A DNA stretch of 64,000 bases from a virus: UHGV virus genome UHGV-0305822. The stretch is one strand, 5' to 3'. Positions within the stretch are counted from its first letter, which is position 1. Every line of letters starts with the position of its first letter. A program made the translations under genes and the position numbers. This document shows, piece after piece, positions 31,678 through 60,402 of this stretch. The notes beneath the pieces are model-generated. The model was not told the origin of the DNA and did no database searches. It saw nothing but the letters and a program-made list of their open reading frames with translations.

Positions 31678-32829
31678 ATGCGAAATATTATTTCTAAACC
31701 AGGTCATGCCAAAATCCTAAAAGAACTGATGGACAGATGCTATAATCGGACTTGGTCGCTACCAAGCTTAACCATCGAATCTTCATTACAACGTGAGTTG
31801 TTTGGTTATGTCATGGGCTGCTGTGTACTTACTGAATACAATGAGATTATCGCGCCTGTCGATGTCTGTACTTCCGATGAAGAAATTGAAGGTTACCAGT
31901 TCACAGCTTACACAAATTGTGGACTAAATTACCGTAAACTCGTTGTTAGGGAAATGAGTAGCAACCGGAAGATTATGTTTAAGGTATTCCCAAGTGGTAA
32001 AGTCAGTAATTTATGTCTTCAGCTTGAGAAAGTGCCCTTTCACGGTGCGGACATTTTAACTAAACCGGAGCTCGCGTTATTAAGCGGGTTAATTGGTTTT
32101 GAAGCAAAAACCATCAAAGTTGAGCAGGAACTTACACGAAACGATTTCGGCTCAACTTGGTACGAAAGTTTCTTCCGCTACGAAATGTTAAGTGATAAAG
32201 CTATCAAACTCACTTACCGTTCTACCGACGACATCGTTTACCACATTTTAATTAGCGGCGAACCCCACCAGATTATTGAAGTCGAAGGAGAAAAATCCGT
32301 GCGTACCTTAAAAGATGAATTAACTGATTTTGTTAACAAAATTGATAGCGTGGGTATCAGTGAATTATTATTCCCGATTCAACATCCAGAGTTGCTTGAC
32401 GAGAAATGTGAAAACATGGTTATGGCGGTGCATTTACTTCCTGACCATCTTGCTATCTACCGTACACTTTCTAAGAACCAACTTAAAGTGTGGTGTCTGT
32501 TAAAAGACCTTTTAACAGAGGCGGGGTGGTCGTGTAGTGTAGATGTTAACTGTGAAGGAGTTGCGTTCTTCATCACAATAGGCAATCGTAGTTTTTCTGT
32601 CGATTTACCTACTCGCAGCTATTACGATTTCTTCCCGACCGCAGAAGGACGTACTGAAAAAGAACCCGCATTACTGCTCAGTGCTAAGTCGTCCAATGCG
32701 CTAATGGCGCAACTAAAGGCAAAAGACGAGAAACTGGATGCTTTACATCTACCTATAATCGGAAAAGATTACGGTTGGGCTGACGTGCAAAAATACGGCA
32801 GCCAACTGTTGTTTGTTGCTGACCTTTAA
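31678..32829 (+). CDS. hypothetical protein, GW...QLLF family (member 3)
   Basis: C-terminus DYGWADVQKYGSQLLFVADL. Confidence 0.55.
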   Translation: MRNIISKPGHAKILKELMDRCYNRTWSLPSLTIESSLQRELFGYVMGCCVLTEYNEIIAPVDVCTSDEEIEGYQFTAYTNCGLNYRKLVVREMSSNRKIMFKVFPSGKVSNLCLQLEKVPFHGADILTKPELALLSGLIGFEAKTIKVEQELTRNDFGSTWYESFFRYEMLSDKAIKLTYRSTDDIVYHILISGEPHQIIEVEGEKSVRTLKDELTDFVNKIDSVGISELLFPIQHPELLDEKCENMVMAVHLLPDHLAIYRTLSKNQLKVWCLLKDLLTEAGWSCSVDVNCEGVAFFITIGNRSFSVDLPTRSYYDFFPTAEGRTEKEPALLLSAKSSNALMAQLKAKDEKLDALHLPIIGKDYGWADVQKYGSQLLFVADL

Positions 32830-32896: not shown

Positions 32897-33670
32897 ATGA
32901 AAGTCCATTTAGACGATATCTTTAAAACCGAACCGTATATGATCGAAGGTCCGCTAACATCACTACTACTCGCCGATAGATTAGATCGTACGCTGCAATT
33001 ACAATCGATCGAATCTGCACCCGTTGACGATGTAGAGCGTTACGAGCGCATCAACTATACGCGTGGTGAGTATCGTCGCTATAAGCCAAATTCACTAAGC
33101 GTTAAACTTTGGAAAGTAAGCACAGGTAAGGTATTAACTTATCGCACTGTCGGTAGTTATTACATTCAACAAGCCAAAGAATGGCTAGAGAAAGTTAAAG
33201 AACTGAACTTCGATCTACTGAGCAAAAAACTGCGCGATCATAACGCTAGTTTGCCGATACGTAATTATTTCTCCACGATTGAAAATAGCCGTTGTTTCGT
33301 TTCTCGCGAATCCATGATATTACCTGGGGATGATGTTCAGACAACACTAAAAGATGTGGTTGTGAAGAAAATCTTTCATGAATCTGAACACGTTGGGTTT
33401 CGTATCTATCTGACGCACAAGAGACCATTTACCGTGATTCACGTTGTTACCGCACCCGAAGGCTCAGCGGTTATTCGAGAACTTCCTGATGCTCGAGACC
33501 GTTGCCCTAATGAGCCGCTTTATTTAATGTCAGGAACAAAATCAACCGCGTTGATGTCCCGTTACAGCATGTTAGATGTTGTTGACGCTGCTATGAAACT
33601 AGGTTGGAAAGAAGTGCAGCAACATGGTAAACAATTGCTGTTTATTGCCGATGTAAAACTTAATCAATAG
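32897..33670 (+). CDS. hypothetical protein, GW...QLLF family (member 4)
   Basis: C-terminus KLGWKEVQQHGKQLLFIADVKLNQ. Confidence 0.55.
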   Translation: MKVHLDDIFKTEPYMIEGPLTSLLLADRLDRTLQLQSIESAPVDDVERYERINYTRGEYRRYKPNSLSVKLWKVSTGKVLTYRTVGSYYIQQAKEWLEKVKELNFDLLSKKLRDHNASLPIRNYFSTIENSRCFVSRESMILPGDDVQTTLKDVVVKKIFHESEHVGFRIYLTHKRPFTVIHVVTAPEGSAVIRELPDARDRCPNEPLYLMSGTKSTALMSRYSMLDVVDAAMKLGWKEVQQHGKQLLFIADVKLNQ

Positions 33671-38220: not shown

Positions 38221-38225
38221 CGTTT

Positions 38226-38268
38226 GGGAGAACCTTCGGGTTCTCCCTTTCTTTATTTTTTTCTTTTT
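38226..38268 (+). terminator. rho-independent terminator
   Basis: Stem GGGAGAACC / GGTTCTCCC, loop TTCG, then long T-rich tract. Confidence 0.65.
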
Positions 38269-38298
38269 ACACCACACTCCGTCTTTATGGAGGTGGGT

Positions 38299-40803
38299 AT
38301 GCTAAAAGTTGAACGCATTATACTCAAAGGTTTTACGGGGATGGGGTTACATGAAATTGAAACCTTCGATTTCACTATCCAGTCTCCAACAACAATTATC
38401 CTGGGTGGGAACGGCTGCGGGAAAACCAGTCTACTGTCTGTGTTCTTACCCTTAGCACCGGCTAAAACCGAATTTAGGGACGGCGGTTCTTACACAAACT
38501 ACTGTTTAGTTGGCGATCAACGCTATCGATTCAAAGTTGCCCGTAAAGGCAACTCTTTGGTTTGTGATATTGAGAACTTGACCACGGGGACAAAGATCGT
38601 CGAGCAAGGTAATGCGAAAGTCTACAACTCCCGTGTTGAAGAAATCACGGGTATTACGAAAGAGATTAAAGAACTATTAAATGGTGAGGTGTTGTTAACC
38701 GATGCGGGAACCGAATTACGCCGCAAATGGTTTTACCGTTTAAGTACCTCTGACCTCACTTACGCGTTAGGGTTTTATCAGCGTTTACGTAAAAACCTTA
38801 CTGCCTTAAATGGGGGTATTGAAATCACCAGCCGCAAGATCGCCGAATTACGGACGCGTGTTATTGAGAACGAGGAAGAACGGCAGCAGTTAGCGACGAG
38901 ATTAAAAGGTTTGGAATCGGATTTACGTGAACTGAACCGAGAAATCGAACAGTTGCCAGGATTAAATCGTGCCGTCACCATCGAAACAATCCAAGCGTTA
39001 TTAAACAGCTTGGGCCCAACCATCGACGCAATATTACAACATCGTGGTGGCCTGCCTACTGATGAACAGATACTGACCGCGCGACAAAACGAAGCTACGG
39101 CCCGCGAAGCTGTCGTGTCTACTGAAACAGAGGTATCGATGTTGAATAAAGACTTGTCGTTATTAATGGATGAGTCGACACGACAAGACTACCTGATGCG
39201 GAATCACGAAGGTCTCAAGAATACGCTGGCACGTTTACGTGAGTTACTTACCAAATGGGACACCGAACATCTCTTTCCGGGTCTATTTAACGACAACATC
39301 AATTTAGACCAACTTCGTGCGGCTACAGATGCGCGTGTTTGGGGGCAACGGTTGGGAACAACACTAGACGCAATTCATTCAACCGAAAAACTTAACGTTT
39401 TGGAAGAACGACTTCTGGTGATGGATCAAAAAACCGCAGGGATGCGGGATAGACTCCAGCGAGTGGAGAACGTTTTACAGAATTTAAATCACGAACGTAA
39501 TCACTACTTAGAAACAGCGGAAGTGGATTGCCCGCAGTGTCGGTTTAAGTTTCGGCCCGGTGTTACGCGTTCTTTACCTGAACTTGAGTCTTCGATTCGC
39601 GGACAACAACAGCAGCGCACGGAACTGCAAACACAGTTAGAGGCCCTATTACGCGATCGTGTTGAATTAGAATCTGATGTAACTTATATGCGGCAGGTTC
39701 GTGAGATTGTACTGACGTATTCAAAGGACCCGGTATTGAGCATGTTCTTTAAGCGTTTGCAAGAACGTAACGTTTTCACAGAATCACGCGAACAGTTCGG
39801 GAGTCTATGCGCAGCGTTTGACAGTGAGTTGTACTCTGCTATTGAGTACCATGAAACCCGACAACGGTTAGTGAAGGCGGAAAAAGAATGGCAGGATGCC
39901 GTAGCGGCCGTTGGTAACGTCGATGGTGCTTTACAACAGAAAATCGCCTTCCAACAGTCACGATTAGGTAAAGCCACAGAAATGCTCTCAATGCGTCGTA
40001 GAGAGCACGAACTGGCTAACACGACACTTACCTATCTGGTGAATGTTAAACGTGCTGTAGATGATTTCAGTGCGTTATTCGAACGGTTAGAGAGTGATGT
40101 TAAGGTTACGTTGACAAATACGGTCGTCGAGGAACTCTTACGTGCACGAGAAGGGAAGCTGGATGCTTTTACAACCGCACGCGAACGTTATCGTCAGATG
40201 GAAAATGAATTGAATCAGCTCAACAGTTTGGAACGCGAACTTGCTGACTTACAAGCCCAGCAGTTCAATAACAAACTGATGATTCAAGCCTTCTCGCCAG
40301 AAAAGGGTGTACTTAGAAAGTATTTTTACAACGCTATCGTTAGAATCACAGAGTTAATGACGCGTTATATCGAACAAGTCTGGACGTACCCCATGCGCGT
40401 TATGCCTTGTGACCTCACTGACGGCGATTTGGATTATACTTTTCCTGTCCAGCTAAAAACGCATCCTGAGCCTGTTCCTGACGTGCGTAAAGGGTCTAAG
40501 GCGCAGCGTGCGATATTTAATCTGATGTTCAGGCTGACCGCGTACAAAGCGCTGAAGTTGCATCAGTTTCCGTTGCTTTTGGATGAGCCTTCGGAAGGCA
40601 TGGATGAGGAGCACCGTAACAACCTGGTCGGCTTTATTAAAACGTTAGCAAACTCGGGAGAATTTTCTCAACTGTTGGTAGTCTCCCACGAAGCCGAGGT
40701 TCATTCTAAACTTAATGAAGCATCGTACTGTGTCATCGAACCGGAAGGGGTGACATTGCCTGCGGTGTATAACGAAGGAGTAAAAATTGTTTATGCAAAC
40801 TGA
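38299..40803 (+). CDS. Rad50/SbcC-like ABC-type ATPase with zinc hook
   Basis: Walker A GGNGCGKTS near N-terminus; long coiled-coil-like middle with central CPQC (zinc-hook-like); C-terminal LLLDEPSEGMD Walker B/D-loop; ATG at 38299 after GGAGGTGGG (ORF track start 38224). Confidence 0.7.
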   Translation: MLKVERIILKGFTGMGLHEIETFDFTIQSPTTIILGGNGCGKTSLLSVFLPLAPAKTEFRDGGSYTNYCLVGDQRYRFKVARKGNSLVCDIENLTTGTKIVEQGNAKVYNSRVEEITGITKEIKELLNGEVLLTDAGTELRRKWFYRLSTSDLTYALGFYQRLRKNLTALNGGIEITSRKIAELRTRVIENEEERQQLATRLKGLESDLRELNREIEQLPGLNRAVTIETIQALLNSLGPTIDAILQHRGGLPTDEQILTARQNEATAREAVVSTETEVSMLNKDLSLLMDESTRQDYLMRNHEGLKNTLARLRELLTKWDTEHLFPGLFNDNINLDQLRAATDARVWGQRLGTTLDAIHSTEKLNVLEERLLVMDQKTAGMRDRLQRVENVLQNLNHERNHYLETAEVDCPQCRFKFRPGVTRSLPELESSIRGQQQQRTELQTQLEALLRDRVELESDVTYMRQVREIVLTYSKDPVLSMFFKRLQERNVFTESREQFGSLCAAFDSELYSAIEYHETRQRLVKAEKEWQDAVAAVGNVDGALQQKIAFQQSRLGKATEMLSMRRREHELANTTLTYLVNVKRAVDDFSALFERLESDVKVTLTNTVVEELLRAREGKLDAFTTARERYRQMENELNQLNSLERELADLQAQQFNNKLMIQAFSPEKGVLRKYFYNAIVRITELMTRYIEQVWTYPMRVMPCDLTDGDLDYTFPVQLKTHPEPVPDVRKGSKAQRAIFNLMFRLTAYKALKLHQFPLLLDEPSEGMDEEHRNNLVGFIKTLANSGEFSQLLVVSHEAEVHSKLNEASYCVIEPEGVTLPAVYNEGVKIVYAN

Positions 40804-49537: not shown

Positions 49538-50272
49538 ATGACCTACCCAAAAATTGTCACCCCGTACACCCCGACGCTGGTTATTGGCGCTGATGCTGAA
49601 ACCAAATCATTACGTCCCGATGCTTATCTGTTAAGTGCGGGTTTAGTGGCTTTTGACGTCCCTACATTGAAAATGGTAGGTTCCTCATACATCAGGATCG
49701 ATCCTAACGATCCTAAAGCAAAAGCCATTTTCCACGAAGACCCACAAACCGTTGGTTGGTGGGAAGGTAAAGGCGAACCCGAATACGCACCGTCTCGTGA
49801 AGCCTATGCGGAAGCGTGGGGTGGGACGACAGCATTGCCAGACGCGCTCTGGGCGATGCAAAAATGGCTCGGGGAGATCACCGCAAAACATGAGTTTGTG
49901 ATTACCATGCGTGGCCCTGACTTCGATGCGCCGATTTTCATGAACGCATTCGCACAATGTGATATTCCGCCAGGGAAGTTCCGTAAATTCAGTGCACTGG
50001 ATAGCGATCGTACCGCAGAACGTTTAGCCTTTGCATTTGGGTTCGAGCCTGACCTAACCGTAGAGCAAATTTACTGGACACGCGGTAAGCCCGCTTTTGA
50101 GCACCACGCAATGTGGGATGCAGCAAAAGAAGCCTACACCACGGCACGTATTTACCACCTCGCTTTGGTCACTCGCCAATACGGGTTTGAACGCGCCAAA
50201 GCCTGTCACGAAGAACTGAAAACGGGCGAGTATGTTGCGCCGCAGATTCGTGATCAATTAACCAGGGATTAA
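49538..50272 (+). CDS. DEDDh-type 3'-5' exonuclease (DnaQ-like) candidate
   Basis: VIGADAETKSL (DxE Exo I motif) and HHAMWDA (H-x4-D Exo III motif). Confidence 0.55.
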   Translation: MTYPKIVTPYTPTLVIGADAETKSLRPDAYLLSAGLVAFDVPTLKMVGSSYIRIDPNDPKAKAIFHEDPQTVGWWEGKGEPEYAPSREAYAEAWGGTTALPDALWAMQKWLGEITAKHEFVITMRGPDFDAPIFMNAFAQCDIPPGKFRKFSALDSDRTAERLAFAFGFEPDLTVEQIYWTRGKPAFEHHAMWDAAKEAYTTARIYHLALVTRQYGFERAKACHEELKTGEYVAPQIRDQLTRD

Positions 50273-50274
50273 GA

Positions 50275-51795
50275 ATGAAGAACGTTGATGTTGCAGTAAT
50301 TTACACGGATGGTAGCCATTTGACCTCCCCGCTCGGTACAGGAGCGGGGATTCATGGATACTTATTTAATCGTGAAGCGATTGAGGATGGTCGGGTTTAC
50401 CGCCATCCCTCTATTCCCGAGGGGATTACGACGTCAGGATACCGCCAGATAAACAAGGATGAAAAACTTCCACCTTTACCAGAAACCGTGGAGTTTATTG
50501 ACGGCGTTGTGCCTGTACCAAAAATGTCACACTCCGACGTTGCAGAACTCGTGGCTTTCCTGACCGTCTTCGAACACGCACCTTTCGTTGCCAAAAACTA
50601 TGTTATCTATATCGATGCCTCTTACGTTGTCAACACGTATAACGATTGGATTGATGGTTGGGCTGCACGCGGCTGGCGTCGTGCAGACGGTACGCCTATT
50701 GCGAACTTGGAATTAATCCAACGGATGTGGGAAGTTAAACAGCGGTTAAAGAAAGAAGGGAAAGGTATCCGTGTCCTTAAAATTAAAGGGCATTCAGGAC
50801 GCTATGGAAACGAGCGTGCCGACGAGTTAGCACGGAAAGGTTCAAGTATTTCGGCTCGAGGTGATGGGTTAGACTATACACCGTATTGGTCAAAAGACGA
50901 GATGCCTGAGGAAGAACAGCAACCAGAAGTTGTTGGTGAAGGTGTCAATTTGTCTGCTTTTCCCGATATCTGTGTTACGAAGTTCTGTTACCCGATGGTG
51001 AACGAACCGCATCCCACTGTTACAGTTAACGGTAATAAACTTTATTACATGTTCGGTGGGAACCATGCAAAACAGAAGGACGATATCGTCTTCGTTGGTA
51101 AGTACATTCCAGATGCACAATTCTGCGTAATGTTTACCAAAGAACCATGGAACAACGTATACGAGTTGGTAAATACCCACTCTGCGAAAGCGTGGGAAGG
51201 GGTGCCCCGTTTACGTCAGTTTGATCCCATCGCCGTTGTTTTTAACTTATTCGTAAAACGTAAGAAGTTCGCAGAAGCCGCAGGTAACGGTATTCCTGTC
51301 GATCGGATGCATTTTAGCGAAGACAAAAACCTGTGGATGTTTGAAGATCTTTCGATTACACGAATTCTTCGTCCCGCGTTATTGTCTTATCGCTGCATTA
51401 CGATTCGTGATGAGCTTGCAGGTTGGTTACGCGATGCCATGGAGGGGAAAAACTCAGTCGTAATGAACGACATTACTGACCTGCTTTACGATGAGAAAGG
51501 TAAGCCGAAGAAAGACTTTTATCGTAACGTAGATAAAGGTTTTGACGTAACCATCCATATCCCTGGTAGCAAAAACAAGGTTAAAACCATCCTTACTCGA
51601 GGTATCGACATACCGACGCGTACGGAAATCAACCGTATGAAAGAACCAGAAGGACGATTCTACGTGGCGGTAAGGCGTCCAGAACGGCAGTATATCGAAT
51701 ATGCGTTGGTTTATATTGGGGAAAAATATCATGGGTTGTGGTGTGGCTATTATTCAAACAAACGAATATTGACGGATAAGGAGCTTGAATGCTGA
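50275..51795 (+). CDS. RNase HI domain fused to ~310-aa C-terminal domain of unknown function
   Basis: VAVIYTDGS; DVAELVAFL; IDASYVVNTYNDWIDGWAARGWRRADGTPIAN; KGHSGRYGNERADELARKG all parallel E. coli RNase HI motifs (TDGS; NN.MEL.A; TDSQYV..GI..W...W..RGW.TA; KGH.G...NE..DELA). Confidence 0.75.
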   Translation: MKNVDVAVIYTDGSHLTSPLGTGAGIHGYLFNREAIEDGRVYRHPSIPEGITTSGYRQINKDEKLPPLPETVEFIDGVVPVPKMSHSDVAELVAFLTVFEHAPFVAKNYVIYIDASYVVNTYNDWIDGWAARGWRRADGTPIANLELIQRMWEVKQRLKKEGKGIRVLKIKGHSGRYGNERADELARKGSSISARGDGLDYTPYWSKDEMPEEEQQPEVVGEGVNLSAFPDICVTKFCYPMVNEPHPTVTVNGNKLYYMFGGNHAKQKDDIVFVGKYIPDAQFCVMFTKEPWNNVYELVNTHSAKAWEGVPRLRQFDPIAVVFNLFVKRKKFAEAAGNGIPVDRMHFSEDKNLWMFEDLSITRILRPALLSYRCITIRDELAGWLRDAMEGKNSVVMNDITDLLYDEKGKPKKDFYRNVDKGFDVTIHIPGSKNKVKTILTRGIDIPTRTEINRMKEPEGRFYVAVRRPERQYIEYALVYIGEKYHGLWCGYYSNKRILTDKELEC

Positions 51796-53777: not shown

Positions 53778-54302
53778 GTGGATATTTTAATTCAGCTTCG
53801 TAAGAAAACAACCATTGCCACACCGATAGCGCTAGAGGAGAAAATCTCTGGCGCAGTTGCACGCAAGCTCTGTGGTGCTCATGGCTTTAGCGACCATCAG
53901 GAGCGGGTCGTTACTGTCGCCACATTACACAACTTACGTCACACAGTGCATTACTGTTTAGTTGACAACGTCACCATCACTCTTGATGATAACGTAAATG
54001 TCGACCAACTGCGACGCGAAATTGTCCACAAGATCGAGGCTTACAATAGACGTTTCGATCGGGCGTGTACGCGTTTAACTAATGACGAGGCACTACGAAA
54101 ACGTTTGAAACTTGAAATCGAATATGCAGCGCAACGATACGGGATTGGCGGTACCGAACCGTGTCTGACTGAACAAGAAATCACGTTAGCAATTGAGGTT
54201 TATACCACTCTCTGTTGCGCCATCCTAAAAGAGACCAACCACGAAATTACAAAAGCGTTGTTAAACACCGCAGACAAACTCTCCCCAATTTTAGGACAAT
54301 AA
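53778..54302 (+). CDS. hypothetical protein (174 aa)
   Basis: GTG start after AAAGGAG. Confidence 0.5.
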   Translation: MDILIQLRKKTTIATPIALEEKISGAVARKLCGAHGFSDHQERVVTVATLHNLRHTVHYCLVDNVTITLDDNVNVDQLRREIVHKIEAYNRRFDRACTRLTNDEALRKRLKLEIEYAAQRYGIGGTEPCLTEQEITLAIEVYTTLCCAILKETNHEITKALLNTADKLSPILGQ

Positions 54303-54303
54303 A

Positions 54304-54792
54304 ATGAACGTAAATGATATTATCAATCTTAGTAAAAGTGATATTGTGCACGAATTTCTCAATCACGGTGCGCGTGTAAGAAAAGAAATTGAAGAAAAGT
54401 TGACCCCAATGGTTGCTTCCACTCCTTGGATGGCAGGATACGCCGCTGCCTACTTCAGTTGCCAGAGCGGAAAAGCATACATAGCTAACCTGTTTGATTT
54501 CTTCAATCCATCAAACGACCACATAACAGAAACAGACGTTCGACAACGCCTTCGCGATTGCCGGTATCAGTTCTTAAGAAATGTTACTGATGCGTACAAT
54601 TTAGAGCAATTTCCTACACCGATTGTTCCCTATACAGAACCGGAATGGGAAAATTTTTATAGACGAATTTGGATTGGTGGGTCTTACGTGGCAGATATAA
54701 TGGAAATCATCGAACGTAGTGAAAACCAACTTGCTCTGCAACTATGGGAGTGGTTAAAAGCTAATTATCCTGATTACGTCAAAATCGACTAA
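54304..54792 (+). CDS. hypothetical protein (162 aa)
   Basis: ATG 2 nt after upstream stop. Confidence 0.5.
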   Translation: MNVNDIINLSKSDIVHEFLNHGARVRKEIEEKLTPMVASTPWMAGYAAAYFSCQSGKAYIANLFDFFNPSNDHITETDVRQRLRDCRYQFLRNVTDAYNLEQFPTPIVPYTEPEWENFYRRIWIGGSYVADIMEIIERSENQLALQLWEWLKANYPDYVKID

Positions 54793-54851: not shown

Positions 54852-55778
54852 ATGTATTTGTACAAAAGTAAAAAAGTAAAAGGTATTAAAGACTGCCTTA
54901 GACAAATGGGGTCTCAGCATCTTGAAAATGTCATGGAAGAAAACCGAATAAAGGAAAATCCTGTCTCGAAATGGATAAAAAAGAATCGTAACCATTTAAC
55001 CAATGCCTTTATACCTTACGACGCTGAGTTAGGTCTCAAAGATCCCCGTTCCCTTCACGCACAAACATTGGCAATTGGATGGCTATACGGTGGTGCTTCC
55101 TTAATATCCAACCAAGCACTTAGAGAACTTGTTTTCGAGACTGAGATGCCCAGTAAATTCCCTGAAGAATGGTTGGACTTTATACCTACTTGGACTGTGG
55201 CAATCGACGTAGGTAAAGAGGATGAGACTTTCTTTCTCGGCTATCGAAAAAACGGGAAGAGAAGGTTTATCATAATTGCCACAAATACTGATTACGGGTT
55301 AACAGAAGGCGTTACCACAATTGCCACTTGTTCGTTAGAGCTTCGTAGTGCAGGGAACGGGCTTGTGGAAATCGACTATGCCGACGGTGTGGAAAACGAA
55401 CAAGAAAAGATGTTGTGGTTATCTCTGGCCAAAGCCGCCACTTCGATGATATTTCTGTGCACGCTAATCCCGCCTAACTACAGGGAGACTTTTAATGATA
55501 TTAAGTTCAAGGAAATCAAAAAGAACGGTAGTATTAGTTACGACGTTAAACCTCGTGAACGCGATGTTAAGATAGATATCACGCCAGGACAAGTGAATTA
55601 TCTAAAAGGGTTTAACACTGACTTGAAAACCATGCAGGGTATCAAACATGCTAAGGCTGCCCACATCCGTCGCGCACACTGGCGCAGATATTGGGTCGGC
55701 CCTAGAAATGGTGAAAGAAAGAGAAAACTTTGTTGGATTCCACCTACCTTTGTCCGTGGCTACGTACCCCACAATTAA
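54852..55778 (+). CDS. hypothetical protein, HIRRAHW family member 1 (308 aa)
   Basis: C-terminus AAHIRRAHWRRYWVG...WIPPTFVRGY paralogous to next gene. Confidence 0.55.
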   Translation: MYLYKSKKVKGIKDCLRQMGSQHLENVMEENRIKENPVSKWIKKNRNHLTNAFIPYDAELGLKDPRSLHAQTLAIGWLYGGASLISNQALRELVFETEMPSKFPEEWLDFIPTWTVAIDVGKEDETFFLGYRKNGKRRFIIIATNTDYGLTEGVTTIATCSLELRSAGNGLVEIDYADGVENEQEKMLWLSLAKAATSMIFLCTLIPPNYRETFNDIKFKEIKKNGSISYDVKPRERDVKIDITPGQVNYLKGFNTDLKTMQGIKHAKAAHIRRAHWRRYWVGPRNGERKRKLCWIPPTFVRGYVPHN

Positions 55779-55802
55779 GCTAAAGTGTTTAGGAGTATTA
55801 AA

Positions 55803-56702
55803 ATGACAACGAATAATAGACTTTACGGGAAAGCGCTAAGACGCATGAGTGAACAAATAGAAAAGGCACACCAAACAATTCACGGATTAGATCAGTGTCG
55901 CTTTATTCGGTTCATTAACGAGCATAAACGTCAAATACCCGTAACGTTTATGCCAGTTAAAGATCCGACCTATCGTGAGTATGGCGTTACCGAACAGATT
56001 CCCAGACTGATTAAGCAGTCTCTGGGACTAGGATGGCAATACGCTGCTGTTGAAATCATCTCGGATGAAGAACTGATGGCGCTCTTAGCAAAAACTGAGA
56101 GACTAAAAAATATCCCGTACTTCTGGATAGAAACCATCCCTTCATTTACTTTCTCGGTTACTGTAAATCTCGACGAATGTCCAATCACGTTATTTATCGG
56201 AAGACGTCTTTACGAAGGTGAAGAAGTTCTCTTTGTGATGTCATGCGAAGAACATGACGAGTCGGTATACATGGAGTTTGAGATTTACACGATCGATAAA
56301 AGTAATGATGATTTCGTGGAGTTAAAGCCGCTCCTTACTTCGGTTAAGGAGAATCAACGACTACTCGACGCCGTCTATATCGGGCTATATCTTTCATCAC
56401 GAATTAAGCGAACCGAACGCGAGAAGAAAGAATTTCGCGGAAGGTCCATTCGTTATGTTCCTGATACAGAAATTCGCCCACGTAGTGAAGCAGTCGTTTT
56501 AGATGTAAGTCCGGTACAATGGGAAGATATAGAGCAGCAACGCAAGGAAGGACACGAGGTTTGTTTGGCGATTTATTGTGCCGCACATATCCGTCGTGCG
56601 CATTGGAAGCGTGTATGGTGTGGTAAAATGTCAGAAATGCGCTGGCGCGAATGGCGATGGATAGCGCCGAGTTACATTTCTGGATTTTATCGTGGGAAAT
56701 AA
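55803..56702 (+). CDS. hypothetical protein, HIRRAHW family member 2 (~300 aa)
   Basis: C-terminus AAHIRRAHWKRVWCG...WIAPSYISGF; ATG at 55803 after TTAGGAGTATTAAA. Confidence 0.55.
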   Translation: MTTNNRLYGKALRRMSEQIEKAHQTIHGLDQCRFIRFINEHKRQIPVTFMPVKDPTYREYGVTEQIPRLIKQSLGLGWQYAAVEIISDEELMALLAKTERLKNIPYFWIETIPSFTFSVTVNLDECPITLFIGRRLYEGEEVLFVMSCEEHDESVYMEFEIYTIDKSNDDFVELKPLLTSVKENQRLLDAVYIGLYLSSRIKRTEREKKEFRGRSIRYVPDTEIRPRSEAVVLDVSPVQWEDIEQQRKEGHEVCLAIYCAAHIRRAHWKRVWCGKMSEMRWREWRWIAPSYISGFYRGK

Positions 56703-56710
56703 ATAGTTTA

Positions 56711-56759
56711 CCCCTAGACCGTGTGGTCTAGGGGTAACTTTACTTTTTTTTATTTTTTG
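56711..56759. terminator. bidirectional terminator
   Basis: Stem CCCCTAGACC / GGTCTAGGGG, loop GTGT, then TTTACTTTTTTTTTATTTTTT; between convergent genes. Confidence 0.65.
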
Positions 56760-57505
56760 TTTGCCTTAAGCGCTTTTAAGCGTTCGGCAGTAACGTTCAG
56801 GCATTCGATTAACTCGTTAACCTGTTTCATGAACAGACCAAACAGCTCCACCCAATCGGACGCAAAATCTAACATCATCGTCAGTTCTTTTGCTACATTC
56901 GGATGAATGTTTTGTTCAGACAAGATTTCCGACGTAGTGCGAATGGACTCGATTGACTTGTCGATGTTCGTCCGTAAACGTTTCGTAATTTCAACGTTCA
57001 GGGCTTTAGCACGATTGAACGCAACGTCAATCTCAGACGCGCTGTGGTACGTCTTCTCAATTGGTCGCTGGTCAATAACGTTATTAGTGTACGATTTCGC
57101 TAATAAGTTAACCAGGTCTTTCGGGTTAACATTACGTAACGGCAAATTAACGTTTTTATAACGGAAACCAATCGGTAATGACAGTACCCCCACATCATGT
57201 GTAAGGGCCGAAAGTTGTTTATCGACCGGCAGCAGAATACCCGTATAGATGTTTTGTAGTGAACTCCATACGGATTCTAAGCGGTTCAAGTGATCCATCA
57301 CGTAGGTATTAAACCCAGGTGGGACGATAACCAACATTCCCGCAAAGTGTAGGAATTTTTCTTGTTGCATCCACTTGGAAACGTCCGACATCTCGTCATA
57401 AGTGGTTAATGCAATCTCTTGTTGAGGGCCGCTAAACCCTTTCGGTAAGATTGCAGACGCTTTAGCGGCGAAGCTAGATAACGCTGCAAGTGGATTTACA
57501 TTCAT
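56750..57505 (-). CDS. hypothetical protein (251 aa)
   Basis: Isolated minus-strand ORF between plus-strand blocks. Confidence 0.5.
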   Translation of the reverse strand: MNVNPLAALSSFAAKASAILPKGFSGPQQEIALTTYDEMSDVSKWMQQEKFLHFAGMLVIVPPGFNTYVMDHLNRLESVWSSLQNIYTGILLPVDKQLSALTHDVGVLSLPIGFRYKNVNLPLRNVNPKDLVNLLAKSYTNNVIDQRPIEKTYHSASEIDVAFNRAKALNVEITKRLRTNIDKSIESIRTTSEILSEQNIHPNVAKELTMMLDFASDWVELFGLFMKQVNELIECLNVTAERLKALKANKK

Positions 57506-57603: not shown

Positions 57604-57903
57604 ATGAAAATCAAATTACTGACTCGAAACACCACACCGCGTTTAGAACCGGAAATTTATCTGACGCCTGTTAAAAAAGGTCAGAACGGTAAACCTATTC
57701 AAGTTGGAAAAGTCTTGAGCGTAACGTCGTGCCCGAGCGGTAAACGTGTTATGGAACTGGAAATTGACGAGCGTAACAAACGCCGTTTCGAGTCTATTGA
57801 AAACCCTTATCCTGAAAATGCGGAAGAAGTTACTGAGTGGGTAGAGACCTACTTTGAATTCTGGCACAACCGCCGTCTTCTTCTTCCGACCAAGAATCGT
57901 TAA
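57604..57903 (+). CDS. hypothetical protein (99 aa)
   Basis: ATG-initiated ORF upstream of recombinase-like gene. Confidence 0.45.
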   Translation: MKIKLLTRNTTPRLEPEIYLTPVKKGQNGKPIQVGKVLSVTSCPSGKRVMELEIDERNKRRFESIENPYPENAEEVTEWVETYFEFWHNRRLLLPTKNR

Positions 57904-57918
57904 TTATCGGAGCGCTAA

Positions 57919-59415
57919 ATGGCAGGCCCAACTAAGCAAGTTATCGGTGAAGTAATTCGTCCACGTTTTAACGTTTACACCATCATGGATCATGCCTTAG
58001 GTAACTACGAAAAAGGTGAAGATGGTTTGTACTACCTTAACGGTGGTTTTGCCCACATCATGGGTTTCGCAGGTCGCGGTAACACCTTTAAATCCACCTT
58101 GTTAGATTTCTGTATTTTCCAAATCCTGCAACGTTATAAAGCAGAGTGGGGTTCTAAGTACGATACAGAAGTGTCCGCTGCCCTCGATCGTTTAGAAACT
58201 GGGTACATCTCTGCCATGAACGCCAACGGTATCGACGACGGAACATCCGTACTGGAGCTTATCCACGAAGGTCGTTATAACCTGGTCGGTTCTGACGTAA
58301 TGCCCGGGGAACAGTATTACAGTGATTATATTCGTGATGAAGTTGAAAAACGCTTCAAACAGTATATGTCTGGTAAGACCCGCGTAACACCGTTCCCCGA
58401 TCCGGTTCGTCGTAAGTTAAAAGAAATCCTGGACCCCTGGCTTTATTCTATCGACTCCCTGTCAGAGTGGCATTCCAGTTCGCTGGAAGACAAGCACGCA
58501 AAAACGGATATCGGGGATTCTGATCAGAACATCCTGAACGCCCACGATGCGCTGCAAAAATCGAATATGATGAGCCGCTGGCCGTCTGCGTTTGCACGCG
58601 GTGGTTTTTACATGGGCTTCGTGGCACAGATGGCCGATGACTCTGGGAAAGCGATGGCGGGTGGCCGACAGGCACAAAAAGCAAATGCGAAAATTCTCGA
58701 CGACGCCAACGACGATCTAAAATTCGCAGGTATTCCTCGCCGTCAGCTTAGCTTCTTAACAAACTCTTTTATCGTCGCGACGAAATCAGGGGAACTGAAG
58801 AAAGACCAGAGCTATAACGCACAGACCGGTGTTAACGAAGAACTTTATCCGACGTCACGTTCTAAAGCGATGAATGCGTCGGTAAACGACTTGAAGATTA
58901 TCACCTTTACCCAGTATCGTGCGAAGGGTGGTCACACCGGTGTGAAATTCCAGATGATCTTCTCTCAGGAAATGGGTCTGTTGTATCACCTGAGCCTGTG
59001 GCATTATTTAAGTGACACGCTGAAGAAGTCAGACTTTGGTTTCACATCAAGCGGTAGTGGAGGTTCCATCAAAGAACTTGACATTCTACCTGGTGTGAAA
59101 TTCCAACGCACGACAATCCGTGATATGATTTCTGATAACGCACGCTTACGTCGCGCTTTAGAAATCACTGCGGCAATTGCGTATATGCAAAACAACTACC
59201 ATCGTCTTGAAATGAAGTATCATCTCAGCATGGGTGAGATTTACAAACTGATTGACGAGAAGTGGGACTGGAATGAAATTCTGGATAACACGGTAGAATA
59301 CTGGATGTTTAAAGACCAGGAAACCAAAGGCGGTAAACGTACACTGACTGCACGTACCATTCTGGGTATGGCTGTTGATGGACTAGAACCGAAGTTCCTG
59401 ACGAAAAAGAAATAA
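57919..59415 (+). CDS. RecA-superfamily recombinase candidate (UvsX-like)
   Basis: GGFAHIMGFAGRGNTFKSTLL parallels the unusual T4 UvsX P-loop region (GG..SGL.ILAGPSKSFKSN) recalled from memory; not a canonical GxxxxGK[ST]. Confidence 0.35.
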   Translation: MAGPTKQVIGEVIRPRFNVYTIMDHALGNYEKGEDGLYYLNGGFAHIMGFAGRGNTFKSTLLDFCIFQILQRYKAEWGSKYDTEVSAALDRLETGYISAMNANGIDDGTSVLELIHEGRYNLVGSDVMPGEQYYSDYIRDEVEKRFKQYMSGKTRVTPFPDPVRRKLKEILDPWLYSIDSLSEWHSSSLEDKHAKTDIGDSDQNILNAHDALQKSNMMSRWPSAFARGGFYMGFVAQMADDSGKAMAGGRQAQKANAKILDDANDDLKFAGIPRRQLSFLTNSFIVATKSGELKKDQSYNAQTGVNEELYPTSRSKAMNASVNDLKIITFTQYRAKGGHTGVKFQMIFSQEMGLLYHLSLWHYLSDTLKKSDFGFTSSGSGGSIKELDILPGVKFQRTTIRDMISDNARLRRALEITAAIAYMQNNYHRLEMKYHLSMGEIYKLIDEKWDWNEILDNTVEYWMFKDQETKGGKRTLTARTILGMAVDGLEPKFLTKKK

Positions 59416-59459
59416 ATAGGCTCGGGTAGGGTAAACCCTACCCGACCTAAGGAGTCATC

Positions 59460-59759
59460 ATGCGTTATCAAACGGAGATTGTGGAACGCTTAAGTGAAGG
59501 ATTGGCAAGTGTTAATTTAGAAACAGCGGCCGAATTTCGTGAAGCCTTCACTCACCCGTTTCCCGATCTGGAATCCTTTTGTTTAAAGGTCGCTGAGTAT
59601 TACTCGAATCTATTAGTACGTTACGGGTATGCGCCAGTACGTTCCGAACTTCCTGAAAACACGGAAGCTATCAGCTACTGGATTGACCTGCTTGAAGCAG
59701 AAACGTTATCCAATTTACGTAAGGCGGTAGACAATGAAACTCGAACCAGCGCGGCGTAA
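59460..59759 (+). CDS. hypothetical protein (99 aa)
   Basis: ATG after TAAGGAG. Confidence 0.45.
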   Translation: MRYQTEIVERLSEGLASVNLETAAEFREAFTHPFPDLESFCLKVAEYYSNLLVRYGYAPVRSELPENTEAISYWIDLLEAETLSNLRKAVDNETRTSAA

Positions 59760-60402
59760 AAAGGCGGAAGCCTACGCCTTACAAATCTTAAAGTTGGTAG
59801 ACCCTTCTGGCATTAATGCCGAAGCCGCGAAGAAAGCCTTCGCACGAATGACCGACGAACAGTTTAACCGACTTCGTAACGGTTTGCCTATTTACAACCC
59901 GGTGGGAAGTAAAGTCGAAATTGACCACCTGCGCAATATCGAGGTGTGCAAAATTCTCGGGGTAAACCTGGAGCAACGACTCTGGTTAACAGAACCAAAA
60001 ACGGGTGTTTATCACCGTACTCGTTACCCTCACTTAGTCTTACGCTTGCCTGTCCGTCGTCAGACACAGATGCAAGAAAAGAAAATGGCGGTTGCGAAAA
60101 ACGACAAAGTTCGCGATAAGCTCTCCGGTCAAGTCGTCGGACCTTCCAAAGCATCCGGGGTGTCCTTCCCAGAGGCATACATCATGTACTCCGATGGTCA
60201 CGACTGGACACTGAAAGAGTTCTTGTGGGCGCGTGGTGGTAACGACGCACTACAACGTGCTTTCTATCAATCGCTGCGCCAAACCGGTAAAGGGCGTATT
60301 GATTTGCCTGGAGCGGAGCGAACAAGTTCTAAAGCAACGCGTACGTGGTCGGCGTACCTAAAAGCGATGCATATCGGTAACAACATAGGCCATCCGTCAT
60401 GA
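59734..60402 (+). CDS. hypothetical protein (222 aa)
   Basis: ORF overlapping upstream gene end. Confidence 0.45.
   Translation: MKLEPARRKKAEAYALQILKLVDPSGINAEAAKKAFARMTDEQFNRLRNGLPIYNPVGSKVEIDHLRNIEVCKILGVNLEQRLWLTEPKTGVYHRTRYPHLVLRLPVRRQTQMQEKKMAVAKNDKVRDKLSGQVVGPSKASGVSFPEAYIMYSDGHDWTLKEFLWARGGNDALQRAFYQSLRQTGKGRIDLPGAERTSSKATRTWSAYLKAMHIGNNIGHPS

Follow-up and report, generated by a model that had tools for sequence, protein, structure and literature searches.

The open reading frame at positions 57919-59415 of the viral genome UHGV-0305822 very likely encodes a UvsX/RecA-like recombinase of a phiKZ-like, nucleus-forming jumbo phage (Chimalliviridae) related to SPN3US and Asesino. The window analysed is a stretch of 64,000 nucleotides from this genome. 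Recombinases of this type are already known from phiKZ-like giant phages, and the phage that carries this one is absent from the phage database. The first-pass annotation had proposed a RecA-superfamily recombinase with a UvsX-like, non-canonical P-loop from the letters alone, and the proposal is supported by profile search, in which UvsX-like recombinases were the only significant match, with no unrelated ATPase family reaching significance, and by structure prediction. The identity of one core gene is thereby fixed for a new SPN3US/Asesino-like jumbo phage, and it can be seen that a very diverged recombinase was recognisable without tools, from its unusual P-loop alone.

Re-translation returned the same coordinates, strand and length for the ORF as had been annotated before. 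The gene and the signals around it are as follows.

57909..57912, plus strand: Shine-Dalgarno GGAG, 6 nt 5' of the ATG
57919..59415, plus strand: predicted UvsX/RecA-like recombinase gene, 498 aa and stop, ATG start
59422..59445, no strand assigned: perfect 10-bp stem-loop, intergenic, between the stop codon and the Shine-Dalgarno/ATG of the next gene

A 99-aa ORF upstream (57604-57903) ends 15 nt before the recombinase start, and because so short a gap separates the two, they are probably co-transcribed. Promoter and terminator scans around the recombinase gene gave no excess over chance. Among 50%-identity cluster representatives the 498-aa protein has 840 relatives, which identifies the ORF as a real gene; the best 150 of these 840 family clusters are mostly about 450-540 aa in length. 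The reading of the ORF as a chance or mis-called frame draws on the absence of Pfam and NCBIfam matches and on nothing else. Set against it are the probability of about 6e-13 for 498 stop-free codons at local composition, the Shine-Dalgarno sequence, the 840 homologous clusters, a confidently predicted fold and conserved synteny, so that this reading is virtually without probability and is counted as already refuted.

Some homologues are 635 aa long. An intein or internal insert was considered for them and rejected, as the additional 141 aa sit at the N-terminus and stop directly ahead of a MAGP start; for the same reason these longer proteins are probably read-through products or gene-call fusions. 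Nor did the upstream ORF 57604-57903, considered as a fused partner, show any evident resemblance to the N-terminal extensions by inspection. One such extension (P0181) is a DNA-ligase-like domain.

Direct searches did not lead to RecA or UvsX. The Pfam scan of the 498-aa protein returned neither RecA PF00154 nor PF21134, even at E 10, and both are carried by every listed T4-type UvsX; PF21134, the second Pfam model on these proteins, is possibly a model of the UvsX C-terminal domain. A weak match to Pfam AAA_25 (E 0.23) was obtained, and the NCBIfam scan gave nothing relevant, even at E 10. Against PDB sequences, phmmer with the single protein found no RecA/UvsX match, and a 33-sequence family profile found no match. 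Homology therefore had to rest on PHROGs, profile-profile comparison and fold. In PHROGs the protein was assigned to phrog_97, "UvsX-like recombinase", with E 1e-55 as its sole significant profile match, and T4 UvsX belongs to the same group (E 9e-105). In hhalign, a 178-sequence family profile aligned with the T4-UvsX family at 84% probability and E 8e-6, with a confident stretch of about 56 columns from Walker A to the catalytic Glu. The comparison with the single T4 UvsX sequence was weak (9% probability), and that with E. coli RecA was not significant (E 0.14).

The ATP- and DNA-binding motifs of the protein, as placed by these alignments and by the predicted structure, are listed below.

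58063..58098, plus strand: Walker A/P-loop GFAGRGNTFKST, aa 49-60, aligned with AGPSKSFKS of T4 UvsX
58159..58170, plus strand: YDTE, aa 81-84; E84 aligns with the catalytic Glu (UvsX E92, RecA E96; PMC3016280)
58189..58191, plus strand: R91, aligned with the adenine-stacking Tyr (UvsX Y99, RecA Y103; PMC3016280)
58438..58464, plus strand: Walker B strand WLYSIDSLS, aa 174-182, paired with UvsX FIDSLGN and RecA VVDSVAA
58504..58530, plus strand: L1-like DNA-binding loop TDIGDSDQN, aa 196-204, best local match to RecA L1 EIGDSHMG
58621..58629, plus strand: VAQ, aa 235-237, end of a core strand; Q237 pairs with the gamma-phosphate sensor (RecA Q194, UvsX H195)
58636..58728, plus strand: L2-like loop, aa 240-270, longer than RecA L2
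58918..58926, plus strand: R334-A-K336, end of the penultimate core strand

FAGRGNTFKST (aa 50-60, nt 58066-58098) had been likened to the atypical Walker A of UvsX rather than to GxxxxGK[ST], with AGPSKSFKS of T4 UvsX as the comparison. This motif is indeed present in T4 UvsX, within LAGPSKSFKSN at aa 58-68, and the profile-profile alignment places AGRGNTFKS and AGPSKSFKS in one register, both having the form G-x4-F-K-S and not G-x4-G-K-[ST]. In T4-type UvsX a Phe in place of the second Gly (F65) is invariant at the matching position; of 178 members of the family studied here, 84% have an aromatic residue (F or Y) at position 57 and 8% the canonical G. All conservation figures refer to these 178 relatives. 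Within the same motif K58, conserved in 100%, is followed by S or T in 100%, and N55 is conserved in 98%. E84 is 99% conserved, and YDTE pairs with YDSE inside the confident region of the alignment. At position 91 an Arg is found in 87% of the family.

Further along the core, D179 (100%) lies in a predicted strand of residues 174-179 and is followed by S180 (98%). At the sensor position 237, 86% of members have H and 13%, like the protein studied, have Q (0.99 together). R334 and K336, each 99% conserved, pair with K248/K250 of RecA and K246/R248 of UvsX by relaxed alignment and strand order in a single-chain model; both these and the sensor were placed by relaxed alignments and secondary-structure order, not by 3D superposition. 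The RecA and UvsX residues in question are trans-acting residues at the subunit interface (PMC3016280). The L2-like loop ends in a conserved K268-F269 that resembles ALKF of RecA, and its residues 241-259 form the only stretch of the model with pLDDT below 50 and its sole disordered part.

Structure prediction pointed in the same direction. The AlphaFold (AF2) model of the 498-aa protein (pLDDT 87, pTM 0.89) predicts a RecA-fold alpha/beta ATPase core. The best 50 Foldseek matches in the PDB were all RecA or "phage recombinase UvsX" (E 1e-10 to 8e-8), with target TM values of 0.58-0.71 against single-protomer targets. The fold search of BFVD placed UvsX proteins of jumbo phages at the top (TM up to 0.86) and RecA-like recombinases next, with DnaB-type helicases at ranks 23-50 (about E 1e-8 to 4e-6). 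The following parts of the model depart from RecA and UvsX.

57919..57966, plus strand: N-terminal tail, aa 1-16, MAGPTKQVIGEVIRPR, predicted coil
58000..58041, plus strand: beta-hairpin insertion relative to UvsX/RecA, aa 28-41, directly before strand 1 and the P-loop
58372..58431, plus strand: second beta-hairpin insertion, aa 152-171, directly before the Walker B strand
58795..58890, plus strand: extended hairpin/loop insertion relative to RecA/UvsX, aa 293-324
58978..59412, plus strand: C-terminal domain particular to the family, aa 354-498, mainly of helices, with small sheets

The tail stands where RecA and UvsX have an N-terminal polymerisation helix of about 30 aa, a region described as the association domain in UvsX (PMC3016280). 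No such helix is present in the AF2 model, in which about 16 coil residues precede the core, and across the family the N-termini are short and variable. The C-terminal domain, 145 aa long, has conserved residues P391, R397, R401, R412 and A413. Modelled alone (pLDDT 94) it had no fold match in the PDB, the best E being 3.8, and its identification with the RecA/UvsX C-terminal domain or with another known DNA-binding fold was rejected on this ground.

Comparison with phage genomes indicates that the protein belongs to a family of jumbo phages. By tblastn 281 phage records were matched, all of them jumbo phages and 234 near full length. The sequence is new, as the best phage-database match reached 81% at the protein level and about 74% at the DNA level. 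SPN3US gp216 was matched with 81% identity over 100% of the query, and phiKZ gp152 (Nlp1) with 27% identity over 98% of the query (tblastn E 6e-31, blastp 5.7e-44). The protein is an orthologue of SPN3US gp216, Asesino gp238 and phiKZ gp152/Nlp1. It shares length class, motifs and C-terminal domain with phiKZ gp152, PhiPA3 gp175, Asesino gp238, SPN3US gp216 and PCH45 gp72, as well as the neighbourhood of an RNase H-like gene, a head-protein gene on the minus strand, UvsX and a virion RNA polymerase (vRNAP) beta fragment. Two differences can be observed: about 3 kb of extra genes upstream compared with SPN3US, including two phrog_6160 paralogues, and Q at sensor position 237 where H is the family norm.

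Several of these orthologues have been described. SPN3US gp216 was recognised as a diverged UvsX homologue (PMC5694885). Asesino gp238 UvsX, PhiPA3 gp175 and PCH45 gp72 UvsX localise to the phage nucleus (PMC11724907, PMC10643120, bioRxiv 10.64898/2025.12.19.695335), and nuclear import of phiKZ gp152/Nlp1 requires Imp1 and Imp2 (bioRxiv 10.1101/2024.03.27.586873). A phiKZ phage deleted for nlp1 grows more slowly, forms small plaques, has a competitive index of 0.05 and is sensitive to NucC of CBASS, a DNA-cutting defence nuclease (PMC12676376). The family is already in use as a nuclear-import tag and is genetically known as a repair recombinase; no report of strand exchange shown biochemically for it was found in the literature searched. 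Curated models of Pfam and NCBIfam miss the whole jumbo-phage UvsX family, and so the product is still listed as "hypothetical protein" in SPN3US and many relatives.

In the window the recombinase gene is flanked on one side by a head-protein gene of opposite strand and on the other by the gene of a virion RNA polymerase subunit. Gene-by-gene orthology was observed with SPN3US gp204-gp223, and the order RNase H, UvsX, vRNAP beta is kept as far as phiKZ, where gp147 follows; the annotation of RAY has the same order. The first-pass annotation had placed the recombinase in a replication/recombination gene set with a Rad50-like ATPase, an exonuclease and an RNase H. These genes do exist: an SbcC/Rad50-like ATPase gene at 38224-40803, 17 kb from the recombinase gene, and a DEDD-type 3'-5' exonuclease gene (49538-50272) and the gene of an RNase H-domain protein (50275-51795), both 6-8 kb away. 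They are not contiguous with it, however, and form no operon. UvsY or SSB partners, which had been suggested as a check, were not found among the 30 neighbouring ORFs in the window, whose length is no more than about a quarter of a genome of this kind. Nor was an SbcD-like partner found among these 30 ORFs, where nothing but unrelated enzymes and families of unknown function came to light. UvsY and UvsW have been reported from T4-like jumbo phages only (PMC7824862).

A RecA-type core is common to proteins with other tasks, and the protein could be a ring-shaped helicase or translocase of the DnaB, RadA/Sms or KaiC-like kind instead of a filament-forming recombinase. The DnaB-type helicases in the BFVD search, the weak AAA_25 match and the missing N-terminal polymerisation helix are consistent with such a function. 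We consider it improbable: in both fold libraries RecA and UvsX are ahead of the helicases by several orders of magnitude, no helicase occurs among the best 50 PDB matches, and no DnaB N-terminal domain is present, whereas the P-loop variant, YDTE and the IGDS of L1 are of the UvsX/RecA type and the PHROG is that of T4 UvsX. Genetics argues in the same sense. T4 uvsX mutants have a repair and fitness defect, and the phiKZ nlp1 deletion resembles them. The phenotype of the latter is not that of a replication-helicase null (PMC12676376).

A similarly small probability is given to the view that the RecA fold has degenerated here, with loss of ATP turnover, and that the phage nucleus retains the protein for DNA binding, as a scaffold or as an adaptor for import. 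The family is known mainly as nuclear cargo or tag, no enzymology was found in the literature searched, curated RecA models do not match, and Arg stands in place of the adenine-stacking Tyr; in addition, UvsX is non-essential in PCH45 (bioRxiv 10.64898/2025.12.19.695335). However, all residues needed to bind and hydrolyse ATP show 99-100% conservation in the 178 diverse members, and a dead enzyme would not be expected to keep them so. The non-essential character is also shared by T4 UvsX, which is active.

As a UvsX/RecA-like recombinase, the protein would form polymers on single-stranded DNA in the manner of RecA and UvsX, with ATP sitting between adjacent subunits. Binding of phosphate and Mg would fall to K58 and S59, activation of water to E84 and sensing of the gamma-phosphate to H or Q at position 237, with R334 and K336 supplied by the adjacent protomer. 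L1 and L2 would be the loops that grip the single-stranded DNA, and homology search and strand exchange would be carried out by the filament. Its role would be recombination-dependent replication and the repair of breaks in the phage genome. Judging from the literature on orthologues, the protein would be synthesised in the cytoplasm and then imported into the phage nucleus as its site of action.

Polymerisation probably proceeds by other means than an N-terminal helix of the RecA type. A broader proposal is tentative, and we regard it as somewhat doubtful: the UvsX-like proteins of jumbo phages, this one included, might form a RecA-type recombinase lineage apart, assembling and loading in its own way. 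In such a lineage the short tail would replace the helix and Arg the adenine-stacking Tyr, and the conserved, Arg-rich, structurally orphan 145-aa C-terminal domain could substitute for a UvsY-type mediator or for binding of a second DNA, or could carry a nuclear-import determinant. Distant family members often have an F-x-x-A-P-like peptide in the N-terminal tail, reminiscent of the FxxA motif of Rad51. The F-K-S P-loop in common with T4 UvsX suggests, on the other hand, that the family may branch with the latter. The biochemical questions, namely polymerisation without the helix, the orphan C-terminal domain and loading without UvsY, are family-wide and not specific to this window.

Compared with T4 UvsX (391 aa; PDB 3IO5 is presumably its structure), the protein shares phrog_97, the G-x4-F-K-S P-loop, the YD[ST]E motif, the IDS of Walker B, a His/Gln sensor and the RecA-fold core, and it has a basic pair at the putative interface position. 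The protein had been estimated as about 100 aa longer than T4 UvsX, and the exact difference is 107 aa. It differs further in having no N-terminal association domain of about 30 aa, two hairpin insertions, a longer L2, a longer distal hairpin and Arg where UvsX has Tyr99, and the C-terminal domains are unrelated. Bacterial RecA (E. coli; PDB 2REC, 3CMW and others) is the best structural match, with a Foldseek E of 1e-10. The IGDS of L1 is identical in the two, K-F after L2 is like ALKF, and the catalytic positions are in register by relaxed alignment. In contrast to RecA, the protein has Phe for the second Gly of the P-loop, has no N-terminal helix and ends in a larger, unrelated C-terminal domain, and sequence similarity between them is not significant. 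With DnaB-family and other ring ATPases of the RecA superfamily it has in common the RecA-like nucleotide-binding core, seen as weaker fold matches that rank far lower than those of recombinases; the helicase N-terminal and primase-interaction domains are not present, and its motifs are those of the recombinase branch.

The UvsX/RecA-like recombinase is encoded at 57919-59415 on the plus strand, exactly where the first-pass annotation had placed it, and translating the frame twice gave 498 codons followed by TAA. A Shine-Dalgarno GGAG on the same strand lies 6 nt 5' of the ATG, and the stop of a 99-aa ORF upstream is found 15 nt before it. At the local base composition, 498 stop-free codons would arise by chance at approximately 6e-13, and an artefact is extremely improbable. 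The P-loop segment FAGRGNTFKST covers residues 50-60. Both the UvsX Walker A motif used for comparison and the estimate of a protein about 100 aa longer than T4 UvsX were correct, since the uvsX product in the T4 record is 391 aa (107 aa shorter) and carries LAGPSKSFKSN at 58-68. A stem-loop at 59422-59445 (TCGGGTAGGG-TAAA-CCCTACCCGA; 10 perfectly paired bp, loop of 4 nt) follows directly on the recombinase stop and precedes the AAGGAG and ATG (59460) of the next gene. Since the plus strand shows no T-run, the structure does not qualify as a canonical intrinsic terminator when read in the gene direction.

HMM searches placed the protein in a UvsX-like family through PHROGs (phrog_97, 'UvsX-like recombinase', E 1.1e-55, residues 10-468), which also contains T4 UvsX (E 9e-105). 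Neither Pfam, with a sole sub-threshold match to AAA_25 (E 0.23), nor NCBIfam, with no relevant match, gave a RecA hit; phmmer against all PDB sequences produced only noise, and a 33-sequence family profile had no PDB match at E<=10. Among 50,697 phage records searched by tblastn, 281 matched, exclusively jumbo phages, and 234 of these were nearly full length; the host genera include Pseudomonas, Erwinia, Salmonella, Vibrio, Serratia, Aeromonas, Klebsiella, Ralstonia and others. The closest relatives are SPN3US-like phages (81-82% identity by tblastn/blastp), and proteins of Erwinia phages Stratton, Parshik and Kwan, annotated 'putative UvsX', show 68-80%. phiKZ gp152 aligns with 98% of the query at 27% identity (tblastn), and in the most distant phages the C-terminal domain is what BLAST still picks up (matches limited to 268-485, 309-497 or 389-497). 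Searching 1.84 billion cluster representatives exhaustively with a HMMER profile recovered 840 family members, 502 of them at E<=1e-30. The best 150 of the 840 are mostly 450-540 aa, so the extra length is a family property. The recombinase is a new sequence (81% identity to the nearest database phage) in a known, named and genetically studied family.

Some family members depart from the usual length. P0181 (773 aa), P0190 (716 aa) and P0026 (635 aa) have a long N-terminal extension within a single called ORF; in P0181 an ATP-dependent DNA-ligase-like domain (KLDGIR motif) comes before an entire UvsX-like protein. In P0026 the extension runs right up to a MAGP start, a pattern suggestive of read-through or of a gene-call fusion. 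The Salmonella phage SPFM records (P0030, P0031, P0034, P0038, P0039; H40) combine high HMMER scores with BLASTP coverage of 4-13%, and their shortened versions (280-477 aa) look like genes frameshifted or scrambled in those assemblies.

When family profiles were compared with an alignment of T4-type UvsX proteins, the 33-sequence profile reached 44% probability and a 178-sequence profile 84% (E 8e-6). The confident region pairs recombinase 40-95 with UvsX 47-103, a stretch that runs from strand 1 through the P-loop, helix A and strand 2 to the catalytic Glu. AGRGNTFKS falls on AGPSKSFKS in the same register, as expected from the UvsX-like P-loop first proposed, and YDTE falls on YDSE.

Conserved positions in the 178-sequence family alignment
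Walker A: K58 100%, S/T59 100%, N55 98%, F/Y57 84%
Catalytic Glu region: D82 96%, E84 99%
Walker B: D179 100%, S180 98%
Position 237: H 86%, Q 13%
Basic pair: R334 99%, K336 99%
Other positions: G199 92%, K214 96%, Q350 98%, G353 99%

The canonical Gly occupies position 57 in 8% of the 178 members; therefore both P-loop types coexist in one family and the aromatic residue is not universal. The first three motifs are solidly assigned. Relaxed hhalign alignments paired IDSLS with UvsX IDSLGN and RecA VDSVAA (Walker B), A-Q/H237 with RecA N-Q194 and UvsX N-H195, and R334-x-K336 with RecA K248-x-K250. IGDS was paired with the IGDS of RecA L1, the best local RecA match, which alone is not significant (E 0.14). 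From these alignments and the predicted strand order, 237 would be the sensor and R334/K336 would be equivalent to the RecA/UvsX pair. A T4 review places UvsX E92, K246 and R248 in the ATP site between protomers and gives Tyr99 the role of stacking on adenine (PMC3016280).

AlphaFold2 with the family alignment gave a mean pLDDT of 87 and a pTM of 0.89, with pLDDT below 50 solely at residues 241-259. The best 50 Foldseek matches in the PDB were bacterial RecA structures and one 'putative phage recombinase UvsX', with nothing else (E 1e-10 to 8e-8; approximately 390-440 aligned columns; target-normalised TM 0.58-0.71 for single-protomer targets). These matches and the PHROGs assignment point neither to an unrelated ATPase family nor to the lack of a RecA fold, and the RecA-superfamily call is supported. 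In the set of viral structure predictions, the leading matches were three UvsX proteins of jumbo phages (TM 0.82-0.88), followed by RecA-like recombinases of other phages (E 1e-13 to 1e-9); DnaB-type helicases appeared from rank 23 on, at about E 1e-8 and weaker, and some other RecA-superfamily motor is a very unlikely identity. The UvsX structure among the PDB matches, the recently released 9gbg (hit 35, E 4e-8), was missed by the family profile at the sequence level and therefore represents another UvsX lineage; it may belong with the UvsX proteins from extremophiles covered in PMC12890299.

The recombinase is orthologous to proteins acting inside the phage nucleus. SPN3US gp216 was called a diverged UvsX homologue in 2017 (PMC5694885). 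GFP fusions of Asesino gp238 (PMC11724907), a close relative of the recombinase, of PhiPA3 gp175 (PMC10643120) and of PCH45 UvsX (bioRxiv 10.64898/2025.12.19.695335) localise to the nucleus. phiKZ gp152 (Nlp1) is the standard cargo for bringing foreign proteins into the nucleus, and its import requires Imp1 and Imp2 (bioRxiv 10.1101/2024.03.27.586873). Phage lacking nlp1 replicate more slowly, form small plaques, have a competitive index of 0.05 and lose DNA replication when the CBASS nuclease NucC is present, effects that the authors read as recombinational repair (PMC12676376). UvsX of PCH45 is non-essential (bioRxiv 10.64898/2025.12.19.695335). The literature searched yielded no in-vitro work on strand exchange or filaments for the family. 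The analysis shows the protein to be conserved, with a predicted RecA fold, a site for nucleotide hydrolysis that is intact, and L1- and L2-like loops that are flexible. A UvsX/RecA-like recombinase is very probably the right explanation, and an inactive scaffold or cargo is very unlikely; the original observation is confirmed and its interpretation supported.

Following the RecA/UvsX paradigm, the recombinase would assemble on ssDNA as a helical filament that depends on ATP and holds it between neighbouring protomers; K58/S59, E84, D179 and H/Q237 would act in cis and R334/K336 in trans. The filament would carry out homology search and then strand exchange. Ends processed by phage SbcCD-like and exonuclease proteins may lead into this step, and strand exchange would prime recombination-dependent replication and serve break repair.

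Genes around the recombinase
38224-40803: SbcC/Rad50-like ATPase, 17 kb upstream
49538-50272: DEDD 3'-5' exonuclease
50275-51795: RNase H-domain protein
About 5 kb between the RNase H-domain and head-protein-like genes: genes without assigned function
56750-57505, minus strand: head-protein-like gene
Between the head-protein-like gene and the recombinase: 99-aa ORF
Between the recombinase and the vRNAP beta fragment: 99-aa ORF
59734-60402: virion RNA polymerase (vRNAP) beta fragment, downstream

The window comes from a new phage of the SPN3US/Asesino type. Megablast of 12 kb around the recombinase aligned 2.7 kb including the gene (74% identity) and left the rest unaligned; gene-by-gene blastp showed collinearity with SPN3US gp204-gp223, the recombinase (82%) and vRNAP beta fragment (83%) being best conserved and other genes 27-73%. 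The order RNase H, minus-strand head protein, UvsX and vRNAP beta is common to the window, phiKZ (gp155, gp153, gp152, gp149) and RAY (gp147, gp149, gp150, gp154). Of the proposed replication/recombination gene set, the SbcC/Rad50-like ATPase, exonuclease and RNase H genes are present, but with the ATPase 17 kb away and the genes spread out, the set is dispersed rather than an operon. Neither of the suggested partners, UvsY and SSB, nor an SbcD-like protein could be recognised in a scan of 30 ORFs near the gene. In a comparative study, UvsY and UvsW are reported to be restricted to T4-like jumbo phages, whereas the RecA homologue is widespread (PMC7824862).

Tandem paralogous plus-strand ORFs at 54852-55778 and 55785-56702 (308 and 305 aa; phrog_6160, function unassigned, no Pfam match) share the C-terminal motif AAHIRRAHW[RK]R.W.G and have no SPN3US counterpart at this position. 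A single diverged copy (approximately 22-29% identity) is found in a few jumbo phages of Erwinia, Salmonella and Escherichia and in Asesino, where it sits directly upstream of the genes for the head protein and UvsX. Together with plus-strand ORFs at 53778-54302 and 54304-54792 (174 and 162 aa; no PHROG match, nothing equivalent at the syntenic SPN3US locus), the pair adds up to about 3 kb of inserted sequence compared with SPN3US. Adjacent plus-strand ORFs at 31678-32829 and 32897-33670 share at their C-termini a module of roughly 60-90 aa (phrog_26772, phrog_33648, phrog_24489, function unassigned), which suggests a duplicated or shuffled domain.

Compared to RecA and UvsX, the recombinase has approximately 16 pre-core residues of predicted coil in place of an association helix of about 30 residues; family N-termini are short and variable, with an F-x-x-A-P-like peptide frequent in distant members. 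Hairpin insertions occur at 28-41 (a beta-hairpin) and at 152-171 before Walker B, the L2 region (240-270) is longer, and a long excursion covers 293-324. At the position of UvsX Tyr99, within the confident alignment, the recombinase has R91, and Arg is found in 87% of the family. The C-terminal domain (354-498; conserved P391, R397, R401, R412 and A413) reached pLDDT 94 when modelled alone and had no neighbour among PDB folds (best E 3.8, TM<0.25), not even the C-terminal domains of RecA or UvsX. A mechanistically distinct recombinase lineage, marked by tail-mediated assembly, Arg at the adenine-stacking position and this orphan domain as a possible built-in mediator or import determinant, is a tentative and rather doubtful reading; if true, it concerns the entire family and not the window specifically.
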